From Candidatus Thorarchaeota archaeon (GTDB taxonomy: Archaea; Asgardarchaeota; Thorarchaeia; Thorarchaeales; Thorarchaeaceae): DNA of 15,783 nucleotides. The notes under the pieces are model-generated. The model was not told the DNA's origin. It saw nothing but the letters and a program-made list of their open reading frames with translations, and searched no databases. Made by a program: the position numbers and the translations under genes. Location of the stretch: NCBI GenBank assembly GCA_016839605.1, contig JAEOTX010000235.1, positions 1 to 15,783 of the forward strand, given 5' to 3'. Every line of letters starts with the position of its first letter. The stretch's first letter is position 1. Below, in pieces: positions 317 through 15,783 of the stretch.

Positions 317-1393
317 TTGTCACAAGATACCATAACTCTCATTGATCAGTCTGGAAGCGACAAACACGTCGCTCCTTTTGTCAAACCCAGTCTCGAGGCA
401 TTTGAGAATCCAGAACGAATAGAGATGACATTGCAGTATCTTGAAGAAACAAAATCACTAGAAAGCGTTAAGACGTTCAAGACCACTCCGGCAACAAAAG
501 AAGAGGCCCTGCTTGTGCATAAGCCATATCTCGTTCAGTCTATTGAATTGATGTCTGATCTTGGTGGCGGTGAGTTAGGCGAATCAGCTTGGGCAAGTGA
601 GGATTTGTGGTCTTCAGCTATGCACGCACTAGGAGGTGCCCTTCTTGCAGGAGAATTGGTCGCTTCAAGGGCATGCAGACACTCGTTTGCTCTAGTTCGC
701 CCACCAGGACATCATGCTACAACCTCTTCATCCATGGGCCTCTGTTTCTTCAACAATGTGGCAATTGCAGTAAGAAACATTCAGGCAGAGAACGGGATTC
801 AGAAAGTCTCAATTCTTGATATAGACGACCACTTTGGGAATGGTACTTCGGAGATATTCTATGAAGACCCAAATGTTCAGTTCATTAGCATTCATGAGTA
901 CGACTACACAAGCTATGGAATCGGGCACTACCGAGAGATTGGACATGGTCGTGGATACGGCACCAACATCAACATCCCTCTACATCGGGAGGCACATGAT
1001 TCATCCTATCAGACAGCGATTGACAAGATTGTGACTCCCGCCATAGAGAGGTTCAATCCAGACCTGATTGCGGTTTCAGCTGGATATGACGCCCATTTTG
1101 CAGACCCCATCGGAGAAATGGCTGTGGATTCCGAGACCTATTGGTACATAGCATCCGGGGTTGAGAGACTTGTTCGCTCTTGTGGGATGAAAGGGTCATT
1201 CTGGGTCTTGGAAGGCGGTTACAACCCATTGACTCTTGGACCATGCGTCAAGGCAACGTTGGAGGGGCTACAAGGAAAGCCTTGTCCCGAACTCGAGGAC
1301 CAAAAAGAGGCGCGAGAGATAGAAGAAGAAGTGGTGAGACTTAACCGCAGGACCATCAAGAAGATCCTGGATACGGTCTCCCCATTCATGTGA
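317..1393 (+). CDS. Zn-dependent histone deacetylase / AcuC / acetylpolyamine amidohydrolase family protein
   Basis: Motifs ENPER, RPPGHHA, GLCFFNN, DIDDHFGNGT (DxH Zn ligands), SAGYDAH and LEGGY. TTG start. Confidence 0.95.
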   Translation: MSQDTITLIDQSGSDKHVAPFVKPSLEAFENPERIEMTLQYLEETKSLESVKTFKTTPATKEEALLVHKPYLVQSIELMSDLGGGELGESAWASEDLWSSAMHALGGALLAGELVASRACRHSFALVRPPGHHATTSSSMGLCFFNNVAIAVRNIQAENGIQKVSILDIDDHFGNGTSEIFYEDPNVQFISIHEYDYTSYGIGHYREIGHGRGYGTNINIPLHREAHDSSYQTAIDKIVTPAIERFNPDLIAVSAGYDAHFADPIGEMAVDSETYWYIASGVERLVRSCGMKGSFWVLEGGYNPLTLGPCVKATLEGLQGKPCPELEDQKEAREIEEEVVRLNRRTIKKILDTVSPFM

Positions 1394-1395
1394 CC

Positions 1396-2817
1396 TCAAG
1401 GCTTCTTGTAGAACGTGACTTCTGGATAGGCGGTAGAAGGCCCATCAAGCAGGGATGATGTATCACCCATCAAATGGGTGTCGAAAAACGCAACGACATA
1501 CTCAGTGAGGATCTCAAGCATTCGATAACCGTCTATTGACCCAAGAAGACCGAAGCTCCTGAGAAGGGAGGTCCAGATGTTCATATCGCCGAAGTTATAG
1601 TGACGTGTGCCATCTACGTAGAGACCGTAGCAGGTGCTTTCTGAGTGAGTGAATACTGTGTCATTCAGTTCAGGATTCCCATAGTCCGGACCAAAAAGAA
1701 GCATGAATGGTTTAGTCATGTTTGCAGTCCTTGCCAGGTTTCCGTGGGGGCTATCGAAGCTAATTCCAGCTTGAAGTCTTGAATCAGCCAGACAGACTTG
1801 TTCAGCTGTTGTGCCTCCGAATGAGTGTCCTAGGGCACCAATGCGACTGAAGTCTAGCTTGCCCCAGAAGATGTTTGGAATGTCTGGATTACTTGTAATT
1901 TCAAGCTGGTCAACTAAGAATAGAGTGTCGTTTGCCCAGATGTCGAGACTACTGCCTATGTTGTCAAATGTGTCCTTATCATCCTCATAGATAACATCCC
2001 CATTAGGAAATGCTGTGACGACTGCCTCATATGGATGAGCGATGCTAAAGACTACATACCCATGGCTAGCCAACTCCTCCATGAGCACAGTGTTTTGCAT
2101 TATGACTCCGCCATAGCCATGGGAGAAAATCAAAACAGGAAATGTTGCTTCTGCATCAGATAAGGGCGCATCCTCGTATGAATGCGTGACTGTCAGCGAG
2201 AAGTGACTCACAATAATCGATGGAAGACCCCAAGCCCGTTGAATCCCAGTTGTAAAGGCAGATGGGTTGTATAAATATGGAGCCCTGTTCAGACCAGTCA
2301 CATCATCTGCGGGATACCATGCTTGTATCAGTATCCTTCGAAAATCATCTGGGTCTGCTGTGAAGGTCTCATTTCTGTTTTGATCAGTGAGTTCGAAAGT
2401 TGTTGTTCCAATATTGTATTCGCCAGTCGGATTTGGAAGGACAAATACCGGGAGCAGATTATCAAGAAGCAATGTGGTCGATGACGCAATAATAGTCAGA
2501 ACAATAATTGCGGCTACAACTCTCCTTCTCGGTGGAGCTTTCAAAGGAGCAGATGATTCAATCCTGTAGATGTCTTTCAGTTGGAATATCCCTCGAATAA
2601 GGAACAGCGCTGTGATGAGATAGACAGGGAGCATCTGCCATCGAAGTCCCTCGATTAAGGCATGAATGGGGATTGTAGCTGTTGCCACGATGCTCAACCA
2701 GCCCAGCAGCAGTTTTCGGTCGATTCTCCCAAAGGCTGAAGGTAGGAAAGTCTGAATTGATAAAAGAAACAGCAGGATAATGAGGATGATCTCGAAGAGC
2801 CGCATAGACATCGCCAC
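1396..2817 (-). CDS. Membrane-anchored alpha/beta hydrolase, PAF-acetylhydrolase-like
   Basis: About four N-terminal TM segments, then LPNPTGEYNIGT, IFSHGYGG, ELASHGYVV, nucleophile elbow GHSFGG and a late His (GTRHYNF). Confidence 0.9.
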   Translation of the reverse strand: MAMSMRLFEIILIILLFLLSIQTFLPSAFGRIDRKLLLGWLSIVATATIPIHALIEGLRWQMLPVYLITALFLIRGIFQLKDIYRIESSAPLKAPPRRRVVAAIIVLTIIASSTTLLLDNLLPVFVLPNPTGEYNIGTTTFELTDQNRNETFTADPDDFRRILIQAWYPADDVTGLNRAPYLYNPSAFTTGIQRAWGLPSIIVSHFSLTVTHSYEDAPLSDAEATFPVLIFSHGYGGVIMQNTVLMEELASHGYVVFSIAHPYEAVVTAFPNGDVIYEDDKDTFDNIGSSLDIWANDTLFLVDQLEITSNPDIPNIFWGKLDFSRIGALGHSFGGTTAEQVCLADSRLQAGISFDSPHGNLARTANMTKPFMLLFGPDYGNPELNDTVFTHSESTCYGLYVDGTRHYNFGDMNIWTSLLRSFGLLGSIDGYRMLEILTEYVVAFFDTHLMGDTSSLLDGPSTAYPEVTFYKKP

Positions 2818-2946
2818 ACTGGTATCTTTTGGTTAGAAATTTGACCCTGCTAAAACGTTTCGATTTGTTATGAAGAGGCTCCAATGCTTAATCCGCTAAC
2901 CATAATATAGGCAGAACATGATGTTTCTTAGGTAGTTGATAGAAAA

Positions 2947-4647
2947 ATGTCGCACGATGATGACTCTTCGCATTCATGCCCAGCCCATAATGCACACAAT
3001 CTGAGGAAAAGGGGGCTTTGGACATTAGGAATTCTCGCTGCTGTGAGTGGGTTCTGGATTGCACTAAGGTCAGGGAGCAAGCCCACGAGAATCATATATC
3101 CTTGTCAGCAAGTCGCGCTTTCAAACATCCAGATTTTCAAAGTAGCTATCCTCGCTCTTATCCCTAGTATAGGAAGAGTCCGTGCGTTCTTAGGACGGAT
3201 GAAGCCAGTTGCTATTCTAGCCAGCCTAATTTTAGGAACAGTGTTTCTTAGTAGCAACTATGCGGACCTTGGATTTGACTTCATTCCCGCCCAGGAGGGT
3301 GATAACACTCGAGTTCCTCTAGACCTGCCGACCTTCATATCAGATGATTGTGTATCCGAACTCTACATAGTTCAGAATGCTACAGGAGCGCAGGGAAACA
3401 TGGATTCGGCTGTCAGTGTATTGCTTGACATGATGGAGTCAGAAGAACTTGATTTCTATGAGACCGAATCAACTCCTTCCGGATTAATCGGAAGCGACGA
3501 TGTTATCATTCTGAAGGTGAACGGCCAATGGGGTTACAGAGGAGGAACCAATACAGATTTGGTCAAGAGTGTCATCAGCGCAATCACCAATCATCCAGAT
3601 GGTTTCACTGGAGAGGTGGTAGTCGCTGATAATGGACAGGGGCTAGGTAATCTCGATTTCTACTACTCCAACTCGTTCTATCGCAATCAGTCCTTGGAAG
3701 ATGTAGTGAGCTCATTTGGTAATTTCAATGTTTCAACATGCTTGTGGGACACCCTCCGATCCAGCACTGTAGATGAATATTCCAATGGAAACCTCGATGA
3801 TGGCTATGTCTTGAACAGCACCTGGACTTCTGAAACAGAGATTTTTACCTCTTACCCCAAGTTTAGGTCGGATCATGGGATATACATCAGTTTCAGGAAT
3901 GGGGTATGGGACAGCGAAACAGGTTATGACTCCGACAGACTGAAGGTCATTAACATGCCAGTCATGAAGTCTCACTTCAGATATGGTGTGACCGGGTGTG
4001 TCAAGAACTACATGGGCCTTCCAAAGGGTCACATTGTTGGTTCAGTTGACCTAGGAATTCCACACGAGCACTTTTCCATTGCGCTCGGCGGAATGGCGAC
4101 CCTTATGGCCCAAACAAGGGCTCCGATTCTCAATATCCTAGACATGGTTCGGGTGAATGCCCATCCATTGGAGAGCTCGTCCAGACGAGGTCCATGGAGC
4201 AGGTATACTGATGCCAGTTTCACTGACATCATTGGAGCCAGTCAGGATCCCATAGCTTTGGATTATTGGGCATCCAAGAATGTACTCTGTGCAACAGCTG
4301 AGTATCTGAACTACACCGAATACTCATCCCTGAGTCCCGATTATGAGCCGTTGAGTGCCCAGTACAGCGGGTTCGATCCAATGGATGAGTCGTTCCACAA
4401 TTACCTCGAAAGATCAATGAATGTGCTGATAGATGCAGGATATGCATCTACAATGAACGAAACGAAGATAACTGCCTACGTGACACAGCTAGTTGGAAAC
4501 ACGATACCAGAGCCCACAACTACGCCCACACCCACCGAACCACCTAATGGTGGACCTGACCTCCCAATCAATTCGGTATTGATGCTGCCAATATCAGCCG
4601 CAATCATCGTACTTGTTGCTGCCATGGTCAAACGGAGGAATGCATAG
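2947..4647 (+). CDS. DUF362-family domain protein with N-terminal membrane segments and C-terminal anchor (cell surface)
   Basis: DDVIILKVN, TNTDLVK, VVVADNG, INMPVMKSH..GVTGCVKNYMG, LNILD and ASQDPIALD match DUF362 motifs. A Pro/Thr linker (PEPTTTPTPTEPP), a hydrophobic helix and a KRR tail form the C-terminus. Confidence 0.8.
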   Translation: MSHDDDSSHSCPAHNAHNLRKRGLWTLGILAAVSGFWIALRSGSKPTRIIYPCQQVALSNIQIFKVAILALIPSIGRVRAFLGRMKPVAILASLILGTVFLSSNYADLGFDFIPAQEGDNTRVPLDLPTFISDDCVSELYIVQNATGAQGNMDSAVSVLLDMMESEELDFYETESTPSGLIGSDDVIILKVNGQWGYRGGTNTDLVKSVISAITNHPDGFTGEVVVADNGQGLGNLDFYYSNSFYRNQSLEDVVSSFGNFNVSTCLWDTLRSSTVDEYSNGNLDDGYVLNSTWTSETEIFTSYPKFRSDHGIYISFRNGVWDSETGYDSDRLKVINMPVMKSHFRYGVTGCVKNYMGLPKGHIVGSVDLGIPHEHFSIALGGMATLMAQTRAPILNILDMVRVNAHPLESSSRRGPWSRYTDASFTDIIGASQDPIALDYWASKNVLCATAEYLNYTEYSSLSPDYEPLSAQYSGFDPMDESFHNYLERSMNVLIDAGYASTMNETKITAYVTQLVGNTIPEPTTTPTPTEPPNGGPDLPINSVLMLPISAAIIVLVAAMVKRRNA

Positions 4648-7840: not shown

Positions 7841-8113
7841 TTATAGTCGTTCCTTGATCAGGGTCTCAACGACTGTCGGGTCTGCCAGCGTTGTGGTGTC
7901 ACCGATGTCGTCAATCCTGCCTGCTGCAATCCTCTTGAGAATCCTGCGCATGATTTTGCCGGAGCGGGTCTTTGGCAGTGCATCAGCGAACTGAATCTTC
8001 TCAGGAGTTGCAATTGGACCAATGTCTGATCGTACGTGGTTCCTGAGCTCGAGCTTCAGGTCGTCGGTCTTGTCGATTCCCACCTTTAGGGTCGCGAAGA
8101 CATAGATTGATTC
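7841..8113 (-). pseudogene. acs: 3'-terminal fragment (~90 codons) of acetyl-CoA synthetase
   Basis: Reads [79 protein letters not shown]..., the Acs C-terminal domain. An in-frame TAG at 8123-8125 lies just upstream and the N-terminal ~550 codons are absent. Confidence 0.92.
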
Positions 8114-8267
8114 GGAAAAAGGCTAGAGCGTGCTCAGAGCAGAGTAAAATTGTGGTTATGAGGGGGAAGTTTCGAATTGAGAAAAATAGTGATGGTTTTT
8201 GCATGCAACAAATCCCTGCTCATCATCGCACACTCCTATATTCTGATATCTTGGGATTCTTAATAAA

Positions 8268-9587
8268 CTACCCATGAACGGCGGTTGTGGTTGAGGCATT
8301 GTCCTTAAATGAATCATCAAGGATGCCCCAACCTGTCTTCTCCATAAGATAGAAGATGATGGAAGATGCCGTGTCATGGATGTGTTTCATCCTAGCCTGA
8401 ATGTCTTTGGCTGTAACTCTGTATCGCGCCAAATACTGTGGAGCAGTTGTTGGGAGATTGAAGAAGGAACAGACGACATAGGCCACTCCTTCTGCGTCAA
8501 CTTCTCTCAAGTGCTTAGGTGAAACCATCCTGAGCTTAGAGGACTGCTTCGGCCCGTCCCAGTGGACGAACTCATGAGCGACCTCGTGAACCATGATTGA
8601 GAGCTGTTGATTGATGGAGCAATCGTTGCTGATATGGATCTCACGTCCAGCCGCGTAGCCCCCAGCATCAAGGAGCTTGGCGAAGTCGTACTTGATTCCG
8701 TGCTCATCGCAGAAGGTCTTCATCGCCTCAAGGAAAACAAGACCCTCTTCTCCCTCAATATCTGGAACGTTCAGTCCCTCTGGAATAGGCTCTCCCTCTG
8801 TCTGTGAGATATCATAAACAGGCAGAGCAAGAAATCCATTCAACACCTTGTCCTCTACCCACTCGCCCAGCTCCTTATCGAACTCTCGGACCTTCTTGAA
8901 TCGAGGACCTAGAATGATTATCGGCTTCTCTCCCCACTTCACATGGCGTCCAAGAGAGTTCCACTTGCGCTCGCCTGTAACAAGGGTTGCGTGTGGACAC
9001 TGAATCAGTATTGAGACCGTGTTGTTCCAAGAGTACTTTTTGAAGCCGTTAACAAACTTGAGCAACTGCCCGAAGCCCTCGCTATCACGCTCCGCCTGGG
9101 TGGCCTCGGCCAGTCGCTCTATAGCCTGCTTGGGACTGTCCCTGACCTCCTTCCACCACCTCCGGCGGGCTCCCTCTGGGACCTCGGGTACGTCATACAC
9201 GATGCCCTTTGCTAGAGCTGACAGGAAGTCGGCTAAGTCGTCCCTGTGATAGAGCCTAGCCTGCCATGTGTACAGCTCCCAGCACCCCTCGAACTTGTTC
9301 CATCCGAAGTGCATCCTCTTCAAGATATCTCGGACCCACTCAGCCGGCTTGCGTTGGAACATGACCTCGAACCTCTGGGAGTCGGGGTTGTAGGTGATGG
9401 CTGAGGGGACCAAACGCGCATGATCGTCTAGGACTGTCTTCCCTGTGAAGCCCTCTGTTGCCTGTTCAAGAAGGGCCTCCATCTCCAAGGTCAGAGGGGT
9501 CTTCTCTGAGATCGGAACGGGCTGTGAGGTGGTGTGGTGTGCATGCTCCATCACACCAGCCTCCTTGCTGTAGTCGGTGTCTGTCAT
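8268..9587 (-). CDS. ArdC-like polyvalent protein: ssDNA-binding ArdC-N (DUF1738-like) domain plus zincin-like metallopeptidase
   Basis: FKKYSWNNTVSILIQCPHATLVTGERKWNSLGRHVKWGEKPIIILGP...VYDISQTEGEP matches ArdC-N. HEVAHEFVH...REVDAEGVAYVVC is a HExxH peptidase signature. There is an extra N-terminal domain. Confidence 0.88.
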   Translation of the reverse strand: MTDTDYSKEAGVMEHAHHTTSQPVPISEKTPLTLEMEALLEQATEGFTGKTVLDDHARLVPSAITYNPDSQRFEVMFQRKPAEWVRDILKRMHFGWNKFEGCWELYTWQARLYHRDDLADFLSALAKGIVYDVPEVPEGARRRWWKEVRDSPKQAIERLAEATQAERDSEGFGQLLKFVNGFKKYSWNNTVSILIQCPHATLVTGERKWNSLGRHVKWGEKPIIILGPRFKKVREFDKELGEWVEDKVLNGFLALPVYDISQTEGEPIPEGLNVPDIEGEEGLVFLEAMKTFCDEHGIKYDFAKLLDAGGYAAGREIHISNDCSINQQLSIMVHEVAHEFVHWDGPKQSSKLRMVSPKHLREVDAEGVAYVVCSFFNLPTTAPQYLARYRVTAKDIQARMKHIHDTASSIIFYLMEKTGWGILDDSFKDNASTTTAVHG

Positions 9588-9609
9588 GTCCCTATATAGC
9601 CGAGGCCGC

Positions 9610-9617
9610 TATTTAAG
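9610..9617 (-). promoter_or_regulatory. TATA-like box for the ArdC-like gene
   Basis: CTTAAATA on the minus strand 23-30 bp before the ATG at 9587, consistent with leaderless archaeal spacing. Confidence 0.45.
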
Positions 9618-9914
9618 CTCAGATAGAAATAAATGCTTATACCACAGTCGCGGTTTATGTATCTTTTATTAGAGATGTGAAGATATATCACTGTAGATAG
9701 CAATCATCTGCGAGATTTCCCTTGGTTCCTAATTAGAGTCGAGTTTGATGTGATAATCTGATGATGACTTAGCAATCTGCAGAAATGGGCGAAGATGACT
9801 AATCACTGTAGAGTCCGCTCATAGTATAAGTCTGTTCTTCAGTGGCAATACAAGTTTAAACGGCAGTCTAAGTTTAGGGACCTCTTTAAATTGTACCAAG
9901 AACAACCATCTGGT

Positions 9915-10784
9915 ATGCCAGAAGAGAGAATACCCATAGTCATTAATCCCAGAATCGAAGACCTTCAATCGGGTAAAGTGAAGAACCCCAAGATTATCTC
10001 AGTCACAACCACCACTTTTGGCGGGGTCGGAGAGGACAGACAGGTCAGGTATCACACACGATGGGCACCCCAGTACTCTGGTCCTAGTAAGGGTGAAACG
10101 TTCTACGTGGATGGTGAGTACGATTCGGGGATGCGGGTTGAGATAATGATGCCGTGGGTGGTTCCCAAGCCTCATAAGCTCAAGGCCAGTGAGGCAGCGG
10201 GAATCATCTTCAACAAGAGTCCCTACAGGTTCCTACGGATGTATGGGAGCAGAGACTCCGATTCATATGAGATGGTACATGTCGCGGTAGCGAGGGATGG
10301 TGAAGGTGACATCATCCATCAGGTGTTCTCTGACCCAGAGGATTCAGAACTCTGGACTTTGTTGACGAAGCTCATTGATGAAGAAGACATCTCAATCATT
10401 GGAATCTATTCTGTGAGGCCGAAGCTCTATTCAGGTAAGCACTATCTTGCCGTTGGGAAGGATTCAGATGGAAGGCCAATACACAGACTATATGACAGTC
10501 CTGAGAGTGCGAAGAGGCCCTCCCGATGGAGCTTCGATGTCGAAGAAGTCTATCATGTGGATCCATTTGAGGATGCTATTCCAAGGAACCCTCAGATTCC
10601 CACGAGGATATTCGAGATTGCGCGAAAGAACAGTATGTTCGAACGATACAGACTGTATCTATTGCTGGAAGACGTCGCTAGGGGAAGAACAGCTGAAAAA
10701 CTATTGAAGGGCTTTAGTCCAAAATGGATAGAGAAGGCTTGGCACGCCCATGCTGGTGAGGAGGAGAAGCCTCCCAGCATTTAG
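9915..10784 (+). CDS. Hypothetical soluble protein (~290 aa) of the element
   Basis: Long ORF (track 9891-10784). ATG at 9915 (MPEERIP) lies ~25 bp after CTTTAAAT at 9884-9891 and is the likelier start. No family recognised. Confidence 0.75.
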   Translation: MPEERIPIVINPRIEDLQSGKVKNPKIISVTTTTFGGVGEDRQVRYHTRWAPQYSGPSKGETFYVDGEYDSGMRVEIMMPWVVPKPHKLKASEAAGIIFNKSPYRFLRMYGSRDSDSYEMVHVAVARDGEGDIIHQVFSDPEDSELWTLLTKLIDEEDISIIGIYSVRPKLYSGKHYLAVGKDSDGRPIHRLYDSPESAKRPSRWSFDVEEVYHVDPFEDAIPRNPQIPTRIFEIARKNSMFERYRLYLLLEDVARGRTAEKLLKGFSPKWIEKAWHAHAGEEEKPPSI

Positions 10785-11056
10785 TCAATAAGATAAGTCA
10801 GTTCATTTCCAGTGATTTTATGGGGGTTTATATGCCCAAGCAAGAAACAGCAAGATACATTCGATTCTGAAAGGAGTCGTGTGCTGTCATAGGTCGGAAG
10901 GATTGTTCTGCAGTTCTTTCGGCCGCTATATTCATTCTGTCATCTCCAAAATCAGCATTCATGCATTGCTTGCTTCTTCTGCTTTTCAGCTGCCTTATCC
11001 TCAGTTGTCATCTTCATCAAACCGAGCAGCATTTCCAAAGATTAGTTTTGCGACAC

Positions 11057-11479
11057 TCACCAGAGGCCATCATAAGAGGATTTCAGATATTCCTCAATCT
11101 TGGTGAGATTGTCTGGCACTTCTGGCAGTTCCACCATCTCCACTTCGAGATTGAAACCTGGATTGCTCCTCTTGTATTTCGCAATCTTGTCATCGATGGT
11201 TTCAGCCTTAGGCTTTGTTTCAATCTCATAGATTCTGCTATCAATCAGATCAATGACATCAGCCTTGCCTCCTTGGATTCTGGCCTCGGTGACATAGTTA
11301 CCCTCAGCATCGAGGATCAACTTTGCGATTGCTGCCTTCACAAGGAAGTGTTTCATAGTTTCACTTCCAGGATTGTGTCTGACCACGTTCATGTTGTGGT
11401 TCCAGTTGCCAATCTGAATCTTGTTCACTCGTTTCAAGTGGTTGAGTTCTTGAATCTCAAGTCTTGATAGTCTCACCAT
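11057..11479 (-). CDS. Small PD-(D/E)XK (restriction-endonuclease-fold, CoiA-like) nuclease
   Basis: SETMKHFLVK (ESxxHxxxK-like), TE..I.GGKADVID and IYEIETK (ExE variant). Strong SD GAGGTGAT at 11486-11493. Confidence 0.65.
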   Translation of the reverse strand: MVRLSRLEIQELNHLKRVNKIQIGNWNHNMNVVRHNPGSETMKHFLVKAAIAKLILDAEGNYVTEARIQGGKADVIDLIDSRIYEIETKPKAETIDDKIAKYKRSNPGFNLEVEMVELPEVPDNLTKIEEYLKSSYDGLW

Positions 11480-11491
11480 TTTCTAATCACC

Positions 11492-11580
11492 TCATTCCAT
11501 GTATCTAAGAAGGCCCTGTCGCTCTGTTCGCCTCACAGTGCCAACATGACACTGTACTGTACACTGTCTACAGCCTGAGT
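11492..11580 (-). pseudogene. Orphan 3' end of a paralog/allele of the radical-SAM-like gene
   Basis: Translates SGCRQCTVQCHVGTVRRTERQGLLRYME*, versus SGCRQCTVQCHVGTVRRAEKQGLLRYMTGDSR* at the end of the 14794-15783 ORF. Its stop overlaps the SD of the nuclease gene. Confidence 0.9.
11498..11580. repeat. Imperfect direct repeat, copy A (83 bp; identical core 11559-11580)
   Basis: Ungapped alignment to 14812-14894 (offset 3314) gives 71/83 identical. The core GTACACTGTCTACAGCCTGAGT is 22/22 identical. Confidence 0.95.
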
Positions 11581-11870
11581 CGTCGGAATTCGGGGAATAC
11601 TCCTGACGGCCCTAATATTCCAGTTATGGGTCTATGTTTAGCCTGCTGGTTCATCATCAACAAGTGCCACCTTCCAAAACTCACTTGGAGAGGATCCAAG
11701 TATCCCTTCCTTAATTCGTCTAGCGGCTTGAACTGTTGTATCATAATAGACATACATGGATCCTGCTTGATGCAGGGCTATTGACATGTCAGTATGCTAG
11801 ATCCTGCATGACAAGCAGTGGTCGAAATTAGTGAAATCCTGGTGGAAAGGGGTTTTTGAGGACCTTTGCT
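11581..11870 (-). pseudogene. Degraded GNAT-family acetyltransferase fragment, truncated at the repeat junction
   Basis: One frame gives ...ILGSSPSEFWKVALVDDEPAG*. After a frameshift the next frame gives RPITGILGPSGVFPEFRR, resembling GNAT motif A (GxxGVxPEyRxxGxG), cut just before the Gly loop. The upstream boundary is approximate. Confidence 0.55.
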
Positions 11871-12103
11871 CCACCGAAACCCAACCACCATCAATAGATA
11901 GTTGATCTACACGATTTATGCATTACCATTTAATCTCGATTGTAATGGATTGGAAACAGCCCTCTTCTGAGAAGCACCTCTAATAGGGAAATGGGTGAGG
12001 GCTATTCGACCTCACTCTTGGTTAGCATGGTATATTGTCTAGGACAAGTCCATAAAACCTTGTAACTCAGGTTATTGCATCCATGGTGCATTGATCGTTG
12101 TCA

Positions 12104-12754
12104 CTAATAAAATGCCCACGATATTCGTGTCACCTCTAGGCTTGCTGCGTCACTGCCTGTGTAGCTGTTGCACTGAGCAGCATTTTTCAACGTCAACTGA
12201 AACTTCACGCAAGCATAATAGGTATTGCCTTCCAATAGAGTATAACCGCCAGTCATTGACCACTTATCATCGTAGGAGAAAGCTTCAGTGTCTGCATATG
12301 TGTCACTGTGACCTATAGATTCATGATAGATTGTATAGTAATCCTTTTCATTCATGTTTGAGTCACATATCACTACCGACACAGTAACAGCTGCATAAGC
12401 AGGCCAAAAGCCTGTCGCTAGTTTGACTGATAAAGATCCAGTGAATCCAATCATAATATGATAATCATCACCAGGAACAACTTCAACGCCCAACCACATT
12501 TTGCCATAGTTATAATCAGCCCACCAAGGAGAATACCCCTCGTCTTCCATGTCCCCATTCGTCTTACTAACAACAACTTCGTGATTATCATGGTGCCATT
12601 TCTTCTGTTTATCAAAGGGCAGGTTTTGATAGGCAGCAATAGCGAATCCCTCTTCAGCGGTTGGTTGAGTCCCAATGACACCAATAGAAATCTGGCTCAA
12701 TGGCATCAGGGCAAACAGAAACAATATCAAAGCGATCTTAGCATTTCTTTCCAT
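12104..12754 (-). CDS. Secreted beta-rich hypothetical protein
   Basis: N-terminal signal-like segment (MERNAKIALILFLFALMP), aromatic beta-strand pattern, three Cys, and a perfect SD GGAGGTGA at 12761-12768. Confidence 0.8.
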   Translation of the reverse strand: MERNAKIALILFLFALMPLSQISIGVIGTQPTAEEGFAIAAYQNLPFDKQKKWHHDNHEVVVSKTNGDMEDEGYSPWWADYNYGKMWLGVEVVPGDDYHIMIGFTGSLSVKLATGFWPAYAAVTVSVVICDSNMNEKDYYTIYHESIGHSDTYADTEAFSYDDKWSMTGGYTLLEGNTYYACVKFQLTLKNAAQCNSYTGSDAASLEVTRISWAFY

Positions 12755-12795
12755 ATTTTCTCACCTCCAGTACTTACTCTGCTAAGATAGAAACC

Positions 12796-12979
12796 CCGAT
12801 ACATCCCCAGCCATATATACTGCACAGGTTTTATTTAAACCATCTGCTCTTTTTTGGTTCACTTTTTTGGAGGGGTGCGTTCAATGCAGAAGTAGATATT
12901 GCAGATTTACAATGGTGTGGTCAGATTGGAACTGATCTTAGCAGTGTCGGACCCATACATAGCTTTTGGGATGTATCGG
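12796..12979. repeat. 12-bp perfect inverted repeat pair (12796-12807 / 12968-12979)
   Basis: CCGATACATCCC and GGGATGTATCGG are separated by 160 bp that contain AT-rich TATA-like boxes. Confidence 0.8.
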
Positions 12980-13056
12980 TCTGATTCTCCTCTCTGACCA
13001 CGAATACATATTCCTTATGCTTTGATATTAATCTTAGTATCTAAAGAAAGGTCTTC

Positions 13057-13073
13057 TATAAGAAATTCTTATA
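13057..13073. promoter_or_regulatory. 17-bp palindrome, candidate operator upstream of the membrane protein gene
   Basis: TATAAGAA-A-TTCTTATA, located ~35 bp before the GTG at 13108 and next to TTTATATAA (13085-13093). Confidence 0.4.
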
Positions 13074-13107
13074 ATCTTCATAACTTTATATAATTAGAGG
13101 CTAGATT

Positions 13108-14529
13108 GTGGACGGAAACGGAGCAACAAAGTCATTGCGAGCAATCTTTAGGAGCATTCCAAGGAGTAACCTGCTTTATTGGGGATTGGCCTCACTCATA
13201 TCTGTAATTGGAGCTTTGCTCACTCTTCCCGGTGTAGTTTACACAGAAATATCATCTTTTGAACTTGCGATGAGAACTATTAATGTTGTTGCATATGCTT
13301 TTACGCTTTCAATACCTTTCCTCATTGGGGCTAGTGTCTTACTCACCACAGAAGACTCGCACAAGAGCTTTGTCGATCTTTCAATGAGTGGCACTACACA
13401 TAGAGGAATGTACACATCATGCTTCATTCTCCTCCTTATGTTATGTTCCTCTTTCACAGTCCTTTTGACAGTTGGGTCTTTCATATTATCTCAGTTAGCT
13501 AGTAGCCTCTTTATGCTGCAATATATTCTAGGAACTGCCATTGCTGCCATATTGATGACAGTCCTTCTTTGCCCGATGGGAGTGTTGCTGGCGGTAGTAT
13601 TTGACGACTGGAAGACTTCAACTGGCTTTGGTTGTGGACTGTTCTTAGCTGTGGCATTCACAACGGGGATGCCGAGCTCACCAGCAAGATATACTGAATT
13701 AGTATTCTTAGGTCCTGCTCAGTATTTCAGAGCACTTGCAGCTTCATTATCTGGAATAGAGTTTCCCTCAGCATTGGAGATGATAAATCACTTCGGAGTC
13801 TACTTCACTCTGGAGTCACTCATTGTGCCTACAATCGTGATTATTCTGCTCTCGGTGCTTTCACTATGGACATCGAACAGGGTCTTTAAACAGAATATTC
13901 AGGTCTGGTGCTTTGACCATGATCCATGGGGGAGCCAACATCTGGATGAAACACAGCTAACTGGTCAACCCCCTCGAGAGATGCTTGAAAGGGCGAGAAC
14001 CATCAAAAAGAAGCGAAAGCAACTTAGACGATATGCGATGGCTATATTGGTCCTAGGGATATTCCTCATTCCCACCGCAGGGTATGGCTATACGGTCTAT
14101 AGAGAAACAAGTGACACGACCCTTCTATACCAGAACCAACATTCGCTCCCGATTGGTCAGTGGCTCTACGGCGAGTTCTCCGCCACACGGCCGCAATGGC
14201 CTCTCAGTCTGATGGTACGTTATGAGATTAGTGTTTTGGATTGGAATGGGTGTCCGGATAGTCTAATTCGTCAACATGGCTGTCAGATGTTGACATTTGA
14301 AGAATTCGGAACCCTAAATGACACCGAACGTTGGAATGCAGGATATGCCATGGGAAGTGGCTTGGTAAATCCAGAAACTAGAGATGAAGGCTCGTATGGT
14401 GTCAATCTCTCTAATGAGTCGTCCTACATGGTCTGGGCGTTAAGGTTTGTTGATTCCAATTGGAATATTACCTCAGGCGTTCTTACGTTCTCAATTTCAG
14501 TTTATTTGCAGGTGTTTTCCCCTAATTAG
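13108..14529 (+). CDS. Polytopic membrane protein, ABC-2 permease-like N-terminal half plus C-terminal extracytoplasmic domain
   Basis: Six TM segments in an ABC-2-like arrangement, a basic loop (KKKRKQLRR), a seventh TM, then a beta-rich soluble domain with two Cys. No ATPase partner is present in the window. Confidence 0.7.
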   Translation: MDGNGATKSLRAIFRSIPRSNLLYWGLASLISVIGALLTLPGVVYTEISSFELAMRTINVVAYAFTLSIPFLIGASVLLTTEDSHKSFVDLSMSGTTHRGMYTSCFILLLMLCSSFTVLLTVGSFILSQLASSLFMLQYILGTAIAAILMTVLLCPMGVLLAVVFDDWKTSTGFGCGLFLAVAFTTGMPSSPARYTELVFLGPAQYFRALAASLSGIEFPSALEMINHFGVYFTLESLIVPTIVIILLSVLSLWTSNRVFKQNIQVWCFDHDPWGSQHLDETQLTGQPPREMLERARTIKKKRKQLRRYAMAILVLGIFLIPTAGYGYTVYRETSDTTLLYQNQHSLPIGQWLYGEFSATRPQWPLSLMVRYEISVLDWNGCPDSLIRQHGCQMLTFEEFGTLNDTERWNAGYAMGSGLVNPETRDEGSYGVNLSNESSYMVWALRFVDSNWNITSGVLTFSISVYLQVFSPN

Positions 14530-14716
14530 AATGATGTGCTAAAGCAGAGAGATTTCAGCTACATGCTTCGTAGCGAGTTTGGTTATCATGAGGATCTCTT
14601 GTCCTAACAGACTGTCTTGCAATCCAGAGACATTGGTTTCAAGAAGGACCTGAACGACCCCGCCCACCCCTATCATCAACATCGTAGCAACGAGTCCCAA
14701 TCCCAGCCACAGTATT

Positions 14717-14743
14717 CTGTTATGGTCCGTGTGCCTATAACAG
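14717..14743. terminator. Hairpin between convergent genes
   Basis: CTGTTAT...ATAACAG 7-bp stem (14717-14723 / 14737-14743) about 50 bp downstream of the 14794 stop. Confidence 0.35.
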
Positions 14744-14793
14744 GGAATGTGTCATGAATTACGGTGTCTACTGGAATACTATTGGACCTAGCA

Positions 14794-15783
14794 TTATCTT
14801 GAATCTCCAGTCATATATCTTAGAAGTCCCTGTTTCTCCGCTCGCCTCACTGTACCGACATGACACTGAACCGTACACTGTCTACAGCCTGAGTAGCAGG
14901 TTGGATAATTACCACCGTAGACATCCCCCGAGGTCCAGTTGTGGTTATACGCGCTGAACCTGTGGTCCCTTGTGGTAGGAGCCTTGAAGAGCGCCCAGTC
15001 GGGAACATAGTCCAAGTGTGGATTTCGCTGCTTCTCTCCCTTCATGTACCGAGTGGGAGTCTGAAGGACGAGCGGTTTCCTGTCATAGGTGGCTCCGAAA
15101 TCCCCACTCATCAAGAAGTCCTGCCGGTCCCATAACTTCTGACCCTCCTCTGTGATGTCATCGAAGTGGGATGTGACGACTCGCTGGACCCAGTATCCAC
15201 CGTACTGAAGGTAGATCTCACCAGCCTTCTCTCGCGGTCTCAGGAAGTCATCATCATCGAAGGCACAGATAGAGGAGTGGATGATCGTGCCATAGTCGAT
15301 GAGTTCCTTAGTCTGTGACTTGGATGGACGCTTCCAGAGTCTAGTAAAGACAACTGGAATGACACGCTCCCTCTTGGCTAATTCTGCCAGTTCCAACTGG
15401 ACATCCCAAGACACGCAGGGCTCACCCATCTTCCCAGAACGTATCCAGCCTATCTTCTGAGCGACCTTCCTCAGTTGAGGGACTAGGACGCCCTCATCGA
15501 GAATCATTTGGACAGGATGGGTGAAGTCAGCCTTGAGCTTCTTGCATCCGAACTTAGCATAGCATCCCCAAGGGCATCCCAGGTCGTTGTTTGTGTAGGA
15601 CCAAGGACACCCGTAGATCATATCGACTACATTCTTCTGGTTCTTGGAGTCAGCCCTGACCTCGGCATTTCTTCTCCTGAAGTGGCCGGTCTCAGGGTCC
15701 ACCCACTTCTCAGTCCTCTTCTGGAATGCTGACTTCTTGGGAGTTCCATCGAAGATATGCTGAATGTCTACCTCTGTGGTCAC
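14794..15783 (-). CDS. Cys-rich radical-SAM-like protein (SPL/DUF5131-like), probably 5'-truncated by the window edge
   Basis: GCPWSYTNNDLGCPWGCYA (Cx10Cx3C-YA), WIRSGKMGEP, PVVFTR and IIHSSI fit the strand order of a radical-SAM barrel. There is a second cluster, CYSGCRQCTVQCH (Cx3Cx2Cx3C). The frame is open at the window edge. Confidence 0.6.
   Translation of the reverse strand: MTTEVDIQHIFDGTPKKSAFQKRTEKWVDPETGHFRRRNAEVRADSKNQKNVVDMIYGCPWSYTNNDLGCPWGCYAKFGCKKLKADFTHPVQMILDEGVLVPQLRKVAQKIGWIRSGKMGEPCVSWDVQLELAELAKRERVIPVVFTRLWKRPSKSQTKELIDYGTIIHSSICAFDDDDFLRPREKAGEIYLQYGGYWVQRVVTSHFDDITEEGQKLWDRQDFLMSGDFGATYDRKPLVLQTPTRYMKGEKQRNPHLDYVPDWALFKAPTTRDHRFSAYNHNWTSGDVYGGNYPTCYSGCRQCTVQCHVGTVRRAEKQGLLRYMTGDSR
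14812..14894. repeat. Imperfect direct repeat, copy B (identical core 14873-14894)
   Basis: Partner of 11498-11580. Lies within the 3' end of the radical-SAM-like ORF. Confidence 0.95.

Follow-up and report, generated by a model that had tools for sequence, protein, structure and literature searches.

The question raised by this locus is how the end of one gene comes to be present twice, 3.3 kb apart, on the same stretch of archaeal DNA, and what brought in the sequence that now lies between the two copies. The stretch, referred to below as the window, is the whole of contig C190 (15,783 bp) of a Thorarchaeota metagenome-assembled genome (MAG) that is 80% complete with 4.6% contamination. The gene, at 14794-15783 on the minus strand, encodes a radical-SAM-like protein and is called rsl here; its second, displaced end stands directly before a gene for a small nuclease. 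An original prediction, made from the window alone, had taken the interval for a non-autonomous cassette exchanged at a 22-bp site. Comparing the locus with 87 Thorarchaeia genomes and with 20 metagenome loci that carry rsl, we favor, at an even chance of being right, a different account in which the 3.3 kb is the newest tail-swap layer at the rsl 3' end, a recombination scar and not a self-contained cassette moved by an integrase. The features on which the argument turns are as follows.

14794-15783, minus strand: rsl, an intact gene for a 329-aa, Cys-rich, radical-SAM-like protein (open reading frame (ORF), AlphaFold2 (AF2) model and Foldseek)
14812-14894, minus strand: copy B (new tail), the rsl end now in use, about residues 297-324 (repeat and codon comparison)
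14873-14894, minus strand: the 22-mer identical in both copies, on the copy B side (repeat alignment)
14794-14811, minus strand: the novel extreme end, TGDSR and stop, replacing the ancestral E and stop (relatives' ends compared)
11498-11580, minus strand: copy A, the cast-off old end, still open, ending ..RYME and stop, coupled to the nuclease start
11057-11479, minus strand: 140-aa nuclease of PD-(D/E)xK fold (AF2 model and structural matches)

A gene end present twice

The direct repeat is 83 nt long (11498-11580 and 14812-14894), 71/83 identical, spaced by 3314 bp (BLAST E 3e-19), and is the sole long repeat of the contig. Copy B is the true end of the 329-aa rsl product on the minus strand and reads ..SGCRQCTVQCHVGTVRRAEKQGLLRYM-TGDSR-stop. 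Copy A reads ..SGCRQCTVQCHVGTVRRTERQGLLRYM-E-stop and leads into the nuclease gene, first its ribosome-binding site and then, 15 nt further on, its start at 11479. Codon comparison upheld the original prediction on the character of the differences: the 12 mismatches fall in 10 codons, 8 of them purely synonymous and the remaining two giving T/A and R/K, with 9 of the 12 at third positions. There are 9.5 synonymous differences over 19.3 synonymous sites and 2.5 nonsynonymous differences over 61.7 nonsynonymous sites (dN/dS 0.05, dS about 0.8, Fisher 5e-6). Because the differences are almost all synonymous, each tail evolved under purifying selection as a working rsl end in a lineage of its own. 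The same figures rule out a duplication in situ followed by drift.

The identical 22-mer comprises the first 22 nt of the repeat and is gene-proximal, as had been noted, though an uninterrupted match of this kind is expected by chance with a probability of 0.008 at the nucleotide level and 0.037 when codons are taken into account. It lies in the conserved Cys-cluster codons, and Cys, Gln and Arg have low degeneracy. As a recombination core it is suggestive, not compelling; the likeliest account is that a crossover between ends 86% identical would be expected to resolve there, or that the match is due to chance, at about 4%. Searches of genome and viral contig collections with a degenerate core pattern, with the protein and with the alignment gave no matches. 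A switch of lineage at the 22-mer was considered and rejected, since no crossover is visible there: downstream of the 22-mer, the tail of copy B is identical at 51/57 positions to the relative G015 and at 56/61 to the metagenome relative L057, like the adjoining gene body. For the same tail in copy A, the values are 48/60 and 51/61.

An insertion between rsl and the nuclease gene

Other species show what the locus may have looked like before the 3.3 kb arrived. In G015:C17 a decayed relic runs from rsl straight into the nuclease (82% and 81% nucleotide identity to the window, respectively), and in G012:C19 rsl directly adjoins the nuclease gene as well. G015, L057 and copy A all end ..RYM-E-stop (ATGGAATGAGG; ATG-GAA-TGA-GG), and only copy B departs after the ATG. 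Because these relatives show rsl followed directly by the nuclease, the insertion is real, and this comparison of gene ends gives rsl-RYME-stop-nuclease as the ancestral state, with 3.2 kb having been inserted between the two genes. Empty-site-like arrangements were found only in other species. They match the product anticipated by the original prediction, in which excision would rejoin rsl, ending ..RYME, to the nuclease. Recombination between the two copies would restore the empty arrangement, and through homology over the 22 to 83 bp of repeat the insert may still be lost occasionally.

The insertion has two breakpoints, J1 at 14811/14812 and J2 at 11580/11581. At J2, a fragment of a GNAT gene is joined to copy A at an ACT present in both sequences (in part ACTnnGG), about 3 nt of microhomology. 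The truncated GNAT gene noticed earlier at this junction is real, a decayed fragment of a 326-aa gene. Its sequence marks J2 as an illegitimate, microhomology-mediated join, unlike the arm of an attachment site.

A recurrent breakpoint with shifting borders

The window is one of several loci at which displaced rsl ends were found. The pair formed by rsl and its tandem paralog is kept in 14/87 Thorarchaeia genomes and in the 20 metagenome loci, and the content downstream of the pair differs nearly everywhere. The ends with their borders are listed here.

L053 (Ga0114923_10000879), about 755-871: working rsl end, not an orphan
L053, 1731-1815: copy 2, open, starting at about residue 292 and fused start-to-stop with a 385-aa gene
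L053, 3014-3120: copy 3, decaying, starting at about residue 281-284 and followed by a 197-aa gene
G066:C40 (L082), within 1184-2750: orphan rsl end starting at residue 283, 29 nt behind a homolog of the membrane protein p473
Window, 11498-11580: copy A, starting at about residue 297, the old end coupled to the nuclease

In L053, positions 755-3133 hold a stack of three rsl ends, with a membrane-protein gene between the working end and copy 2. Copy 2 has kept its native adjacency to the '493-like' gene; the 385-aa gene fused to it also lies directly behind rsl in G012:C67 and C96. The orphan end of G066:C40 carries a stub of the nuclease gene, its first four codons, and its orientation relative to p473 is opposite to that in the window. 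Decayed rsl 3' fragments occur in G015:C17, L057, G066:C18, G074:C78 and G061:C50. No further old rsl end was found behind the nuclease of the window. Read together, these loci indicate that the rsl 3' end is a recurrent rearrangement hot spot with shifting borders. Further copies of the gene end with different cargo had been anticipated, and L053 and G066:C40 provide them. The accompanying expectation that relatives would break at exactly the same core was not borne out: the orphan ends begin at different codons (about 281-284, 283, 292 and 297) and have no common core.

Another breakpoint in the same gene region was seen in P0001, a Thorarchaeota MAG from NCBI (locus tag ACFFER_12015) that holds the closest rsl relative, 88% identical. 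Some 40 codons short of the end its sequence departs, at ..RFSAH/IRHEST.., and the C-terminal Cys cluster is absent.

A tail-swap model for the 3.3-kb insert

We propose a resident element with the order rsl, tail A, nuclease, whose rsl gene paired with DNA of a diverged sister element. In that sister, tail B would by then have lacked the last two codons of its reading frame (Glu and stop) and would have continued, from J1 on, into foreign genes for membrane proteins. Recombination or repair synthesis would then have proceeded through tail B and the cargo, and the far end would have been sealed illegitimately, through about 3 nt of microhomology in the GNAT pseudogene, just before the resident tail. 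The outcome would be an rsl gene that is whole and has a new end, with the old end and the nuclease displaced 3.3 kb downstream. A swap of this kind keeps rsl whole, as selection would demand. It requires no integrase, and under it the decayed piece at J2 is explained, as are the variable cargo and the borders that shift from locus to locus. Whereas the insertion, the selection signature, J2 and the recurrence can be read from the sequences compared, the order of the steps and the trigger are what we infer.

A candidate for the enzyme that opened the site is the 140-aa nuclease. Its AF2 model (predicted local distance difference test score, pLDDT, 91) matches solely restriction-endonuclease-like folds, with modest Z scores of 4.6-7.6; among them are the homing endonuclease I-Bth0305I (6.4), Vsr (6.2), Can2/Card1 (6.4-6.8), Hjc (4.6-4.8) and VRR-NUC. 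Residues H44, K48, E65, D74 and E85 are invariant in 40 remote homologs. The protein itself has no Pfam match, and the predicted structure places it in the PD-(D/E)xK nuclease superfamily. The gene was found in 3/87 genomes, always directly behind rsl, and in 0/20 metagenome loci.

The genome G012 shows most closely how such a nuclease may travel. It holds three paralog-rsl copies that are 85-90% alike. Those on C67 and C96 are nuclease-free and have the native tail ..VQCLVPRVRKSKQSCVEEFV-stop, with the next gene starting 4 nt later. The third, on C19 (L015, 10429-10950), is colinear with its sisters up to the VQC codons and then continues into a foreign tail and nuclease unit of about 490 bp, in which the foreign end QCHTSNKQTTLEEFKIGATD-stop (HTSNKQTTLEEFKIGATD-stop) overlaps the nuclease start. 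Behind the nuclease stop, C19 retains a decayed piece of the native end (..KQSCIEESV-stop), interrupted by an internal stop, before the gene that also comes next in the sisters. Because the orphan end of G066:C40, in another genus, has the same HT..QT.LE.FKIG tail type together with its nuclease stub, tail and nuclease have travelled together between genera. A co-conversion tract upstream of the insertion in C19 was looked for, and no drop in identity specific to that copy was found. All nuclease-linked ends read QCH, and nuclease-free ends read QCL or QCV, which would fit a target site destroyed by the arriving unit; this is only a hint, and allele-specific cleavage is putative. That a mobile unit of replacement tail and PD-(D/E)xK nuclease made the break at rsl in the window stands, in our estimate, at about even odds. 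Otherwise the trigger would simply have been homology-facilitated illegitimate recombination where a conserved module ends.

More broadly, the rsl 3' end could be the homing site of undescribed small PD-(D/E)xK homing nucleases that travel with a replacement gene end, where cuts repaired from diverged sister elements would build integrase-free stacks of surface-protein genes, an archaeal counterpart of the yeast WHO elements described below and at the same time a gene-capture engine. We offer this wider proposal tentatively and think it more apt to fail than the tail swap itself.

Several observations weigh against the tail swap or its homing version. The difference in relatedness that would put tail A in a more remote lineage than tail B is measured over 61 nt and does not reach significance alone. 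Had the incoming tract begun further upstream, an identical 22-mer (P 0.008 to 0.04) would not be predicted; a crossover at the 22-mer suits it better. No donor was found with tail B leading into this cargo. A family profile run over all six frames of the cargo and of the L053 stack found no nuclease gene or relic between the tails, and the strict layout of the WHO elements and of the mORFs of fungal mitochondria occurs solely in G012:C19, not in the window insert or L053. Finally, in G012 copies without the nuclease stand beside one that carries it, an arrangement at odds with an active homing enzyme; resistance of those copies, or a composite MAG, may account for it.

Should this reading be correct, Asgard mobile elements acquire and reshuffle accessory genes, mostly for surface proteins, at conserved gene ends without an integrase, and G012:C19 provides a concrete candidate for the enzyme that opens the site, a 140-aa PD-(D/E)xK nuclease moving with a replacement gene end. 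It also carries a warning for annotators, in that 'att-like' direct repeats of gene ends need not mark an excisable element.

The insert and its genes

The DNA between the copies holds four features, given here in order from copy B.

14530-14793, no strand assigned: spacer of 264 nt, holding a 53-aa ORF without homologs
13108-14529, plus strand: p473, a polytopic membrane protein with about 6 hydrophobic segments, convergent with rsl
12104-12754, minus strand: p216, secreted or anchored, with a hydrophobic segment at the N-terminus
11571-11770, minus strand: decayed internal GNAT fragment, residues about 207-273 of 326 aa, with a 26-nt deletion and a frameshift

A divergent intergenic region separates p473 from p216, and about 300 nt of non-coding DNA lies between p216 and the GNAT piece of about 200 nt. 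The spacer has no match in its own genome or in the 87 Thorarchaeia genomes, and no Pfam match. The p473 family is large, fast-evolving and multi-copy, consisting of polytopic membrane proteins of about 470 aa that occur in 35/87 Thorarchaeia genomes and belong to no Pfam family. The closest homolog, at 54% amino acid identity, is the one in G066:C40, where p216 is absent; the other members, about 60, are at 23-31%. A weak p216 homolog is present in G015:C15 without p473, and the intergenic stretch at 12911-13036 is 73% identical over 126 nt to the region beside that p216-like gene, so that it may be a conserved regulatory or leader region. As a travelling unit, p473 plus p216 was not found elsewhere in the genomes compared. 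The cargo ORFs have no Pfam or PHROGs match and no recombinase was found in the interval with these collections, in agreement with the original prediction.

Intact homologs of the GNAT gene occur only in another genus (G073, G078 and G069, 75-83% nucleotide identity), and the MAG of the window has no intact copy. The GNAT gene that lies beside p473 in G066:C40 was considered as a source of the fragment and rejected as a different gene. A stretch of 38 nt in the window (11759-11796) is 95% identical to C156:5863-5900 of the same MAG, a match that could be a common promoter, the end of a small element, or chance.

The rsl gene and the surrounding island

The label radical-SAM-like can be retained for rsl at the level of fold only. 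The AF2 model (pLDDT 87.6) shows a partial TIM-barrel, for which Foldseek returned AprD4 (E 1e-4), anSME, MgmA and spore photoproduct lyase (TM 0.44-0.47), the last being closest in coverage. The canonical part of the label does not stand: there is no CX3CX2C cluster motif and no Pfam Radical_SAM match at E 0.1, and the invariant cysteines are non-canonical (C59-x10-C70-x3-C74, plus C296/C300/C303/C307 in the spacing C-x3-C-x2-C-x3-C). The tandem paralog (C80:124-1059, minus strand) is 28% identical to rsl.

The window ends in exact 127-nt overlaps at both sides, positions 1-127 with C188 and 15657-15783 with C80. The right overlap falls within the 5' part of rsl, which suggests a branch of the assembly graph, from strain variation, within the element. 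The true start of rsl probably lies in C80, where the paralog sits upstream. On the minus strand, a complete acs gene (C80:5008-6999) is followed by an island of about 12.5 kb that terminates in a second, cast-off acs end.

Window 7841-8083, minus strand: cast-off acs end of 80 codons, 84% identical to the working acs end in amino acids and 70% in nucleotides

After acs, the island contains small ORFs, a TPR protein, the tandem Cys-rich paralogs (C80:124-1059, then rsl), the insert region, the 140-aa nuclease, a 297-aa orphan gene and an ArdC-like gene, whose homologs in relatives have no context in common with rsl. No integrase, transposase or resolvase was found with Pfam and PHROGs among the possibly coding ORFs of window positions 8130-15783 and most of the larger ORFs of C80:1-5007; an enzyme encoded elsewhere could still act in trans. 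Scans of the window for tRNAs and other RNA genes, and for promoter or terminator patterns, gave no informative result. The view that the insert is nested in an element that split acs in the same manner is correct insofar as the island does lie between a complete and a cast-off acs end, and is not supported as to mechanism, the two acs tails having no identical core in common. The outer acs event may itself be a tail swap in place of an integrase-mediated integration, the island having been put there by the same kind of process.

Alternative explanations

The rival that survives best supposes that two related elements lay in tandem behind acs, or coexisted, and that a deletion or unequal illegitimate exchange from the first rsl end to the Cys-cluster codons of the second left accessory DNA in between. 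It overlaps with the tail-swap reading, and it is close to a fallback put forward in the original prediction, two related elements with an illegitimate join to captured DNA, which comes nearer to the data than the cassette does. Two ends from diverged lineages would be expected from such a history, decayed rsl 3' fragments are common, and in another genus a close p473 homolog lies by an rsl end, which suggests that such elements carry genes of the p473 type. Relatives of tail B, however, end ..RYME-stop and continue into the nuclease, so that J1 is a separate breakpoint and at least two events are needed; no intermediate acs tail survives, and it would go unexplained why three further short orphan ends start within about 16 codons of each other. 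We regard this history as unlikely.

A non-autonomous integrative cassette, the form in which the locus was first described, would bring its own replacement gene end and would rely on a recombinase encoded elsewhere for strand exchange within the 22-bp core, with copy B as attL and copy A as attR. The layout does resemble attL/attR, an identical 22-mer next to the gene followed by diverged, coding-constrained sequence; relatives have the empty site; and a nested circularising element, the 2.6-kb mini-Yucahu-i, is known from an integrated element of Asgard archaea (Atabeyarchaeia; PMC11529989). Against this, no recombinase was found in the cassette or island, the other orphan rsl ends begin at other codons and leave no fixed core, and what adjoins the core as its arm is a piece of a decayed gene, attached through microhomology. 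Elsewhere the cargo genes do not occur as a unit, the degenerate core pattern has no other match in genome or viral collections, and the significance of the core is just 0.037 when codon-aware. On these grounds we set the site-specific cassette aside as improbable. An integron gene cassette was rejected as well, there being no integrase and the boundary repeats being coding gene ends, not attC hairpins.

An assembly or binning artefact that joined two strains or elements not contiguous in any cell is a very slight prospect: the sequence comes from a MAG and both contig ends lie at 127-nt graph overlaps, one inside rsl, but the copies share at most 22 identical bases against a k of 127, which also disposes of a repeat-induced misassembly, both junctions are unique sequence within the contig, and similar stacked ends occur in independent assemblies (L053 and G066:C40).

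Comparison with known systems

We found no published report of such a layout in archaea, and each of the systems that resemble it does so in part. With integrative elements that target genes, including mini-Yucahu-i, a nested circularising 2.6-kb element whose listed genes include no integrase (PMC11529989), the window shares direct repeats that bracket the insert, a target gene that stays whole, and an element nested within an element. Elements of that kind differ in depending on a tyrosine integrase and in having an att motif that is fixed, of 11 bp in Yucahu-i (PMC11529989), whereas here no integrase was found and the borders are variable.

Homology-facilitated illegitimate recombination combines a one-sided homologous anchor with a join at 3-10 bp of microhomology (de Vries and Wackernagel 2002, summarised in PMC6382021), and like the process proposed here it acquires foreign DNA without a site-specific enzyme (PMC6382021). 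As presented in that summary, it differs in having been shown experimentally only in bacteria during transformation, and by itself it would leave the clustering of joins at the rsl end unexplained.

The closest parallels to the gene ends themselves come from fungi. In the mORFs of fungal mitochondria (Allomyces atp6; Glomus atp6, atp9, cox2 and nad3), a foreign C-terminus is inserted in frame, the native one is left downstream, and the differences between the two are mostly synonymous (PMC3630166). Inserts there are about 1 kb with an endonuclease ORF between the two ends, a description that holds for G012:C19, not for the 3.3-kb insert. The WHO elements at FBA1 of Torulaspora and Lachancea yeasts replace the 3' end of their target with a diverged functional copy at each arrival, pushing the old end downstream so that stacks form (Coughlan et al. 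2020, PMC7282813). Our locus differs from these in that the host is an archaeon and the target gene is on a mobile element; in its nuclease, a 140-aa PD-(D/E)xK protein of putative cleavage activity in place of an intein-like LAGLIDADG fusion; and in the window DNA between the new and old ends, which consists of membrane-protein genes and no nuclease. It resembles both WHO elements and mORFs in that the new end of rsl is diverged and functional and the old end has been displaced downstream, and in G012:C19 the likeness to WHO extends to a new gene end and an endonuclease gene arranged as a mobile unit.

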